Assembly: GCA_963731265.1 (NCBI GenBank)
Contig: CAVSUE010000001.1
Span: 96,001-160,000, forward strand
Source: an uncultured Verrucomicrobiae bacterium
GTDB taxonomy: Bacteria > Chlamydiota > Chlamydiia > Chlamydiales > Rhabdochlamydiaceae
Direction: 5' to 3'
DNA length: 64,000 nt
Positions 29,257 through 29,473 of the stretch are shown here, in pieces (position 1 is the stretch's first letter; the number at the start of each line of letters is the position of its first letter). A program made the translations under genes and the position numbers. The notes below the pieces were generated by a model that had not been told where the DNA came from, did no database searches, and was given only the letters and a program-made list of their open reading frames with translations.

Positions 29257-29473
29257 GAACCTATTCCAGAATTCGAAAAATTTGATCTTTGAAGGATTTT
29301 TTCACAGATCTTAATGCCGCTTCGCAGGACATAGCTGCAATGATCTTCCAGTGGATGATTGCAGGTCCCCTCAGAGCCAAAAAGCTCTTGAGGGGACTGT
29401 ATTCCCAAGAAGCGGCATTAAAAGGTGTGGAAAAAGACACAAAAAGCATTTTTTCAAATTCTGGAATAGGTTC
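29257..29473. mobile_element. MITE-like palindromic element directly abutting the carA start codon
   Basis: Terminal IR GAACCTATTCCAGAATT(C/T)GAAAAA (23/24), inner stem TTAATGCCGCTTC/GAAGCGGCATTAA, two-hairpin core related to the pyrB element. Confidence 0.85.

Follow-up and report, generated by a model that had tools for sequence, protein, structure and literature searches.

Here, we analysed the DNA directly upstream of carA, the gene for the carbamoyl-phosphate synthase small chain, in a 64,000-nucleotide stretch of an uncultured bacterium of the family Rhabdochlamydiaceae (assembly GCA_963731265.1, contig CAVSUE010000001.1), which is referred to as the window (C1:96001-160000 in our contig numbering). 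The sequence next to carA proved to be a non-autonomous palindromic transposable element, assigned to a family A, which inserted recently and hit the AT of the carA start codon. The same two-hairpin module was found at the tip of an unrelated family of palindromic elements, family B, one copy of which lies in frame in pyrB. The explanation that we favour as a whole, namely insertion, a swappable cassette at the tip and toleration by ribosomal read-through, is in our view a probable one. The genome comprises 2.34 Mb on two contigs (C1 and C2) with a GC content of 45.8% and approximately 88% coding sequence; carA, carB, pyrB and pyrI are all encoded on the minus strand of the window (Table 1). 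A first-pass annotation of the window had noticed the likeness between the carA and pyrB sequences, and left out the insertion on the carA start codon, the built-in upstream frame and the in-frame position of the pyrB copy.

Table 1 Coordinates of the elements and genes in the window
Feature	Position	Strand	Basis and remarks
pyrI	19726..20187	-	Pfam PyrI and PyrI_C
pyrB reading frame, 383 aa	20180..21331	-	stop overlaps pyrI start
TA target duplication, pyrI-side copy	20198..20199		filled versus empty sites; other copy 20429-20430
'B'-family palindromic element, 229 bp	20200..20428	-	in frame, 3' end of pyrB; empty site ...TTTTAGGAGAAAAAAATGG in relatives G003 and G002
Two-hairpin core of pyrB element	20278..20332		GTC-type hairpin 20278-20305; CTGCAA..TTGCAG hairpin 20307-20332; covariance model R1, 75.4 bits
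carA (carbamoyl-phosphate synthase small chain, 353 aa)	28195..29256	-	Pfam CPSase_sm_chain and GATase
carA start codon ATG	29254..29256	-	AT at 29255-29256 represents the downstream target copy (2 bp)
Long-form 'A'-family palindromic non-autonomous element, 217 bp	29257..29473	-	inverted repeats, folds, genome copies, empty site in nearest relative
Terminal inverted repeat, carA-proximal arm (GAACCTATTCCAGAATTCGAAAAA)	29257..29280		24 nt, 96% complementary to 29450-29473
Upstream reading frame inside carA element	29261..29449	-	ATG at 29449, 62 codons through core, TAG 29263-29261
Two-hairpin core at apex of carA element	29335..29397		CTGCAA..TTGCAG hairpin 29335-29364 abutting GTC..GAC hairpin 29365-29397
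Terminal inverted repeat, distal arm	29450..29473		pairs with 29257-29280

Filled and empty insertion sites

The carA element adjoins the ATG of carA on its upstream side (the minus strand being the sense strand) and forms a near-perfect palindrome, in which inner arms of 27 nt (85% complementary) accompany the terminal inverted repeats. It folds to about -105 kcal/mol on either strand (z about -12.6), a value that none of 200 shuffles equalled. The element contains no transposase gene, its only frame being the 62-codon frame listed in Table 1, and the same genome holds three more copies of ~215 bp (88-91% identity) as well as about 11 short-form copies of ~160 bp. In the nearest relative, G003, whose CarA is 97% identical, the carA leader is empty (...aaaatgactg followed by ATGTTGTCC), and the element was found at the carA start of none of the ten relatives examined. 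As the element begins with G and ends with C, the duplicated AT rebuilds the carA ATG.

At pyrB, the filled site reads ...GTCTTA[229 bp]TAGGAGAAAAAAATGG in this genome, and deleting the 229 bp together with one TA restores the sequence of G003 and of a further relative, G002. The pyrB/pyrI junction is empty in both and also in the junctions shown for the other eight relatives. Element and TA duplication add up to 231 nt, i.e. 77 codons, which are in frame and stop-free and place the insert five residues before the C-terminus of PyrB (...SLVL[DCAQ...GRSL]GEKNG). PyrB of G003 and G002 ends with ...SLILGEKNG, the stop codon overlapping the pyrI start. According to Pfam, the OTCace domains of PyrB finish at residue 299 of 383, and residues 301-377 are derived from the insertion. 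The pyrB element is likewise devoid of a transposase gene, its only frame being the in-frame peptide; its outer arms lie within a 64-nt pair that is 75% complementary, and it folds to -116 kcal/mol (z -11.3). A protein search for longer proteins holding the insert peptide yielded none at E <= 0.001, which is weak evidence.

A third site is the ATGA in which the carA stop and the carB start overlap. It is empty here and occupied by a short A element in G002 (CTCCT-AT[GAACC...AAGTTC]GT-GAAAAAG); the first bases of that element remake the carA stop, and the duplicated dinucleotide remakes the carB start. The empty sites at carA, pyrB and carA/carB in one genome or another bear out the preference of the first-pass annotation for mobility over a riboswitch. 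The carA-proximal sequence is not a riboswitch or pyr leader RNA: besides its absence from carA in the relatives, A elements also sit before unrelated genes, and an Rfam search of positions 19000-31000 at E <= 1 gave no match on the carA or the pyrB element. Scans with promoter and terminator consensus sequences found no such site inside either of them.

The carA leaders of relatives have been struck independently. In G001 (L077), a B-type element lies between a conserved promoter-like motif (TTGTTT..TATGAT) and carA, in G004 (L076) an A-like element is located upstream of the promoter, and G002 (L074) has an unrelated insert of ~190 nt in the carA leader besides its A element at the carA/carB junction.

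A core shared by elements with unrelated ends

The first-pass annotation had reported a 24-nt match with 21 identities between the carA and pyrB elements, and this match stands. GGATGATTGCAGGTCCCCTCAGAG at 29353-29376 (plus strand) has one other match with up to three mismatches in the window, at 20295-20318 (minus strand, three mismatches), and none of 100 dinucleotide shuffles contained two matches to the 24-mer. Folded as single-stranded DNA, the two cores form the same pair of hairpins (z of the pyrB apex -6 to -8), and the annotated CTGCAA..TTGCAG hairpin next to a second hairpin was thus recovered by folding as well as from the inverted-repeat pairs. Pairing is indeed kept despite sequence change: in alignment A1, read by eye, three pairs are changed on both sides and still paired (C-G/T-A and A-T/G-C in the GTC hairpin, T-A/C-G in the CTGCAA hairpin). 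Outside of the core, BLAST detected no likeness between the elements, in agreement with the claim that their ends are unrelated. For the terminal repeat assigned to the pyrB element, the lack of relation to the carA ends holds, but the 'TA' of TAGACTGCGCCCAG turned out to be target duplication, the element proper comprising only 20200-20428. Also correct was the opposite orientation of the cores relative to pyr transcription, the match being plus/minus and both genes lying on the minus strand.

The core is a module of 57-63 nt made up of two abutting hairpins, GTC..GAC (hairpin 1) and CTGCAA..TTGCAG (hairpin 2). The covariance model R1 was built from 18 core copies; MAFFT alone recovered only 11 core pairs, and a model-based alignment was therefore used. 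The model matches the carA element at C1 125328-125403 (window 29328-29403) with 59.2 bits. It detected 20 cores in this genome, all inside larger palindromes; of 18 other species of the genus, 5 also have cores, and of 22 genomes outside the genus, none has. With a degenerate exact pattern of hairpin 2, we obtained eight loci among 185,579 species genomes, which sit in four records of metagenome-assembled genomes titled 'uncultured Verrucomicrobiae bacterium'; the same pattern had no match in a collection of metagenome contigs. The 32 cores from six species form a graded series with a common junction (GAC/CTGCAA) and a common tip sequence. Hairpin 2 is conserved and shows compensating stems (CTGCAAGC..GCTTGCAG, CTGCATCC..GGATGCAG, CTGCGACC..GGTCGCAG and CTGCAATC..GATTGCAG). 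In hairpin 1, GTC..GAC is constant and at least five different stems occur, down to GTCCTCTGGAC. In the model-fitted alignment of the 32 cores, 84.9% of the cells are paired compared to 78.6% in shuffles (reached by 0 of 500), and 12 of 25 pairs are changed on both sides (reached by 2 of 500), whereas slid partners pair in 25-44%. Other core copies, for which the first-pass annotation had proposed to look, and compensatory changes in support of the pairing were hence found.

The annotation had proposed, as one of two possibilities, a modular element with interchangeable arms around a conserved core. This is supported by the shells in which the core occurs, at least six variants that fall into two to three arm families. 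The end types with a core include A1, an A2-like and a third A-like type (the latter in G004), B (TATACTGCGCCC), B' (TATACCGCGCTCC), the pyrB variant (TAGACTG) and a 'D' end in G013, the shell of which combines B-like inner arms with different outer ends. One copy, in G005 (L158), has no evident shell and is possibly solitary; no core of this genome is. Since outer ends, inner arms and tip can each differ, the build is concentric. Two A-type copies (C1:1258204 and C1:793095) carry other elements nested at the same apex, and the tip is therefore a demonstrated landing place. The core, we suggest, is a cassette that can be exchanged at the apex: the tip of a long palindrome could take up or swap extra DNA without harm to the ends, and the resulting composites would then spread by whichever outer ends are mobilised.

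In the two A-type copies just mentioned (C1:1258204-1258536 and C1:793095-793420), the nested element is a TA-flanked palindrome placed exactly at the tip. A 'C' type element (..GGTTGAAAGTTATAGAAAATTTC..) adjoins several A copies, and the copy at C1:1739030-1739254 is chimeric: its A-type shell, in which a divergent core is retained, has a B'-like end (TACATACCGCGCTCC) in place of the first ~25 nt.

Family A at start codons

Family A is defined by the ends GA[AG]MCTATYC and a 2-bp AT target duplication, and its usual form of ~160 bp lacks the core. BLAST revealed 16 copies in this genome, belonging to two subfamilies with the ends GAACCTATCC and GAGACTATCC; a core is present in only four A copies plus the chimeric one. 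The A shell is found in 16 of 18 other species of the genus, in none of six other genera of the family and in none of 16 other families of the order. The survey of start codons included 47 A copies from eight species, both ends being placed in 44; four duplicate loci, one ortholog of a copy of this genome, three divergent or truncated loci and this genome's chimeric copy were dropped before the count. AT was present on both flanks of 25 of the 44 copies, and the target logo consists only of T-AT-G. In 22 of the 44 copies, a frame of at least 100 codons (opening with ATG, twice with GTG) begins directly at the base that follows one fixed end, compared to a single case for the opposite end, and two of the three copies with unplaced ends also appear to abut an ATG. 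Under a null model that uses crude gene calls, an AT- or ATG-directed element in non-coding DNA strikes a start codon in 4-20% of cases (P 1e-5 to 1e-19). The A arm pattern occurs in five metagenome contigs, in which an ATG adjoins two of three full copies, a SurE-like N-terminus following in one case. From four public runs we obtained fragments and, in a soil contig, a single short-form relative; none of their contigs bridged an empty carA site. No RNA data set is among the public runs listed as containing this DNA, the best of which covers 0.17 of its words.

At the upstream junction, 19 of the 22 start-codon copies retain an ATG or GTG in our tally. Among A copies of 140-230 bp, the frame from the junction ATG, which is composed of the duplicated AT and the G of the element, is open to within 20 nt of the far end in 31 of 40 cases, and in none of 40 in antisense. 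This frame usually closes with a TAG inside GGGATAGGTTC, from which the distance to the gene ATG is 4 nt, or 12 nt for the 160-bp subfamily. Openness extends to subfamilies with a likeness of only 76%, a level at which random substitution leaves the frame open in ~24% of trials. The long A form equals the short form plus 54 nt (18 codons), the frame still being open. The carA copy has a 1-nt shift near its 5' end; its 62-codon frame is the frame of the family consensus, starts at an internal ATG conserved in the family and closes 4 nt before the carA ATG. A Shine-Dalgarno-like 4-mer is found at ~37% of crude gene starts compared to a background of 15%, so that native initiation signals upstream of the junction are plausible, not universal. 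The stop-free upstream frame suggests a relay of ribosomes as in MIRUs, the interspersed repetitive units of mycobacteria: a ribosome would enter at the upstream-junction ATG, or at the internal ATG of the carA copy, and the end of the frame 4-12 nt before the gene ATG would allow termination and reinitiation.

A 108-aa frame starting from TTG (window 29261-29587, minus strand) spans the whole carA element and the promoter region, and would probably enter an automatic gene annotation as a hypothetical protein.

Family B in coding sequences

In family B, 12 copies with both ends placed were analysed, which have the ends [T/G]ACYGCGC. TA flanks seven of them on both sides and 11 on the left. We rejected AT as the duplicated dinucleotide, even though it fits 10 of 12 flanks, as the empty site at pyrB fits only TA. 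The copies are 169-355 bp long and vary by whole hairpin modules, and in 10 of 12 the length plus 2 is divisible by 3. In five B copies, the pyrB copy among them, one and the same frame (peptide YRAQEGFVNLDSARQSKI...) is open, and these copies lie inside real genes or abut them. One copy covers codons 332-389 of 428 in LpxK and splits the Pfam domain, another is located in the N-terminal tail of an RNase R-like protein, and others immediately precede the conserved N-termini of PriA and a FolC-like ligase. B copies would be kept at frame-preserving lengths and translated as insertions. More generally, elements of both families may be tolerated in such a gene-dense genome because ribosomes can read through them.

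Weighing the explanation against its alternatives

Several observations weigh against the explanation that we favour. Among the resident repeats of 0.7-2.3 kb in this genome, the relatives not having been searched systematically, none has A-like or B-like ends; the idea of the first-pass annotation to match each class of arms to resident insertion sequence (IS) ends accordingly met with no success. The parent candidates compared, i.e. a 2.2-kb IS607-like element, IS605-like, IS630-like and IS4/5-like elements, a 1164-bp repeat and others, have unlike ends. At carA itself, the upstream target copy (29474-29475) is TG on the sense strand where AT is expected; the duplication is hence imperfect and the copy is left without a junction ATG. 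By our tally, copies at start codons do not have an intact relay frame more often (15 of 21) than the remaining copies (16 of 19), and the frame may be open by descent from master copies instead of being kept open once inserted. The A copies are related by descent, so that the P-values given above overstate the case, and among the B copies in relatives, the ends of which are uncertain, the length plus 2 is divisible by 3 in only two of four. As to the core, alignment A3 used for the pairing test was fitted to the model, and compensatory changes in a DNA palindrome can arise by hairpin-templated repair without selection. No duplication flanks the core, which replaces 9-15 nt of the short-form tip. 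At least one core-less B copy resembles a deletion between TTCGG repeats, and presence or absence therefore gives no direction of core spread.

Two further candidates for a parent were discarded: the truncated A copy of G001 proved to be no long element, and a small GIY-YIG nuclease was sought, the only GIY-YIG match lying in a 705-aa frame that is probably UvrC.

Could the core be a mobile unit of its own? It might resemble REP/REPIN sequences or IS200/IS605-derived palindromes, be moved in trans by an HUH/Y1 transposase into single-stranded palindrome loops and hence land repeatedly in the tips of A, B and D. Presence and absence of the core are clean at the feet of the hairpins, without target duplication, when the B copy at 213890 (no core) is compared with those at 772170 and 455604 (core); the core occurs in many shell types and, in G005, without an evident shell; its hairpins are strong in single-stranded DNA, and the genome has two Y1_Tnp genes. 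These genes, however, look like IS605 TnpA beside TnpB-type repeats and belong to IS605-like units, the end hairpins of which are unlike the core. Moreover, the cores of this genome without exception lie inside larger palindromes, some absences look like deletions, and the two core hairpins differ from each other, hairpin 1 being free to vary, which is unlike ends read by one transposase. We thus regard it as unlikely that the core is a mobile unit in its own right. Even less probable is that the core is under selection at every landing site as a functional RNA or DNA signal, for instance as an mRNA stabiliser, a protein-binding palindrome or a processing site (RNase III or other). In favour of such a signal, hairpin 2 is conserved across species in its pairing and tip sequence (CATCCACTGGATG), with compensatory stem changes, and both cores of the window lie in transcribed regions. 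But the core is found in both orientations relative to transcription, is limited to 6 of 19 species of a single genus and is missing from most A copies although these occupy comparable sites; the nearest relative lacks both window copies, and the Rfam, promoter and terminator searches came back empty. Finally, short GC-rich palindromes arise easily in repeat-rich genomes, and the likeness of the cores might reflect convergence or chance between GC-rich hairpins of separate origin. With the 21/24 match out of reach of all shuffles and 32 graded cores in six species sharing the same junction and tip, we give this hardly any credence.

Insertion of palindromic elements with a swappable tip cassette remains our preferred explanation. 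A more far-reaching version of it can only be put forward tentatively and is rather doubtful in its entirety. It pictures onion-like palindromic mini-transposons composed of interchangeable hairpin modules, which are stop-free multiples of three and live by being translated through; family A would target the AT of start codons, or survive only there, and relay ribosomes, family B would persist in frame in essential genes, the core would be an independently mobile cassette that enters palindrome tips, and the genus would be TLC-bearing and probably intracellular.

Relation to known repeats

MIRUs are units of 40-100 bp, often in tandem, and are not known to carry long terminal inverted repeats; family A, unlike these, consists of near-perfect palindromes of 160-217 bp with an AT duplication, in a host of a different phylum. 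Pneumococcal BOX elements (boxA-B-C) and the BIMEs of E. coli are repeats assembled from a small set of interchangeable modules. The modules described here, in contrast, are nested concentrically and not in a row, and length changes in multiples of three. REP/REPIN sequences with RAYT transposases are short GC-rich hairpins in many copies, pairs of which form larger structures; compared to them, no constant tag of the GTAG/CGTC type is evident here, and the two core hairpins are unlike each other. Rickettsia palindromic elements (RPEs), on which Ogata et al. reportedly worked in 2000, can be likened to family B by behaviour only, as B copies lie in frame in PyrB, LpxK and others. Family B differs by its clear inverted ends, its TA duplication and its variation in length by whole modules, and family A differs by lying upstream of genes and not in frame.

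MITEs of bacteria (miniature inverted-repeat transposable elements), such as Correia/NEMIS of Neisseria and the enterobacterial ERIC, are described in the available parts of two reviews (PMC3184786, PMC10969869) as small and transposase-free, with terminal inverted repeats and a short duplication, many copies, a long RNA hairpin and filled and empty sites between relatives, and all of this is likewise seen here. Judged from sequence, small size, terminal inverted repeats, target duplication, copy number and filled and empty sites class our elements as MITEs, a cognate IS being the one hallmark that was not found in this genome. In contrast to MITEs, half of the A copies are positioned exactly at a start codon, share one orientation and carry a built-in stop-free frame, and the cassette at the hairpin tip is common to families with unrelated ends. 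The words 'start codon', 'nested' and 'chimeric' are absent from the available text of the 2024 MITE review (PMC10969869). MIRUs, in the portion of a 2025 review at hand (PMC12548453), are mobile repeats that 'insert themselves at start codons' and whose internal frame is translationally coupled to the gene, which is the mode of toleration that we propose for family A. According to the same portion (PMC12548453), the MIRU frame overlaps the gene start by 4 nt, whereas the frame of family A stops 4-12 nt upstream of the ATG. Insertion at the start codon and a frame ending next to the gene start are thus found in the A sequences, and their coupling to translation would be the MIRU-like part of our proposal. 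The accessible text of PMC10969869 presents RPEs as palindromic repeats of ~150 bp found in frame in unrelated housekeeping genes of an intracellular host, with a conserved peptide encoded by each family; family B is RPE-like in that it is inserted in conserved protein genes in frame and without stops. Neisseria REP2 and the Borrelia IR are repeats located immediately upstream of genes that supply ribosome site and ATG, and REP2 has no terminal inverted repeats and is thought to be a copied 5' region with promoter (PMC3184786, in the part available). The A copies differ from REP2 in being palindromic insertions with a duplication, in which no promoter-like site was found. In structure, the elements are therefore MITEs, of which family A appears to behave like MIRUs and recalls REP2 of Neisseria and family B behaves like RPEs.

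New are the occurrence of both behaviours in one genus, the landing of AT in ATG with both codons rebuilt, and a tip cassette that extends across families with different target duplications. The concentric modular build with a common tip is not described in the available text of the MITE reviews (PMC3184786, PMC10969869) and bears on the origin of MITE families. The system, in which close relatives provide both empty and filled sites, is a clean natural case of start codons and coding sequence being colonised by mobile palindromes, and it places two ways of staying harmless side by side, i.e. the relay reading frame and the in-frame insertion. A false lead is removed as well: the elements seem to have no pyrimidine-specific role, and nothing here regulates pyrimidine genes. 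For annotation, it follows that gene callers will extend pyrB by 77 residues, mis-start genes such as priA and the folC-like ligase and take the 108-aa frame across the carA leader for a gene.

Further observations

The genome contains five matches to TLC nucleotide transporters (four strong; four with an unbroken frame), compared to none in 14 control genomes, which hints at an intracellular life. The four strong matches to this ATP/ADP translocase family are located at C1:371071-372540, C2:38733-40196, C1:1528634-1530118 and C1:1261831-1263237; one is broken by a TAG, and one strong TLC gene adjoins the A copy at C1:1261555. Large tandem or dispersed arrays with units of 2.1 kb and 1.4 kb (84-91% identity) were found at C2:149652-158104, C1:956199-960395 and C1:1180103-1186997 and are possibly families of repeated genes.

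The window holds three more palindromic repeats of the same network (17250-17440, 46557-46702 and 49030-49240). An A-like interior is combined with other ends (GAGTGTGTTAACGG) in one of them, another belongs to a separate type, and the third is B-like and contains a 66-nt module (GGTTCGC..CCGCAGCC).

The 2.2-kb IS607-like element is present in five copies of ~99% identity (C1:41579-43795, 448598-450815, 682353-684572, 1073758-1075975 and 1472658-1474887) and encodes an IS607-type serine recombinase of 204 aa and a TnpB-like protein of 506 aa; it appears to have been active recently. A related unit of ~1.88 kb is cut by the end of the window (63561-64000). The 1164-bp repeat lies at 29532-30695, directly upstream of the carA promoter region, has a second, inverted copy at C1:968439-969626 and contains two frames (115 and 165 aa) without a Pfam match. 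Its end contributes the TTGTCA which, together with TATATT from the flank, forms the only promoter-like site facing carA (29552-29523, minus strand). A hairpin inside this repeat (30123-30231) has weak sub-threshold Rfam matches (miRNA precursors, isrG) and is probably just another palindrome.

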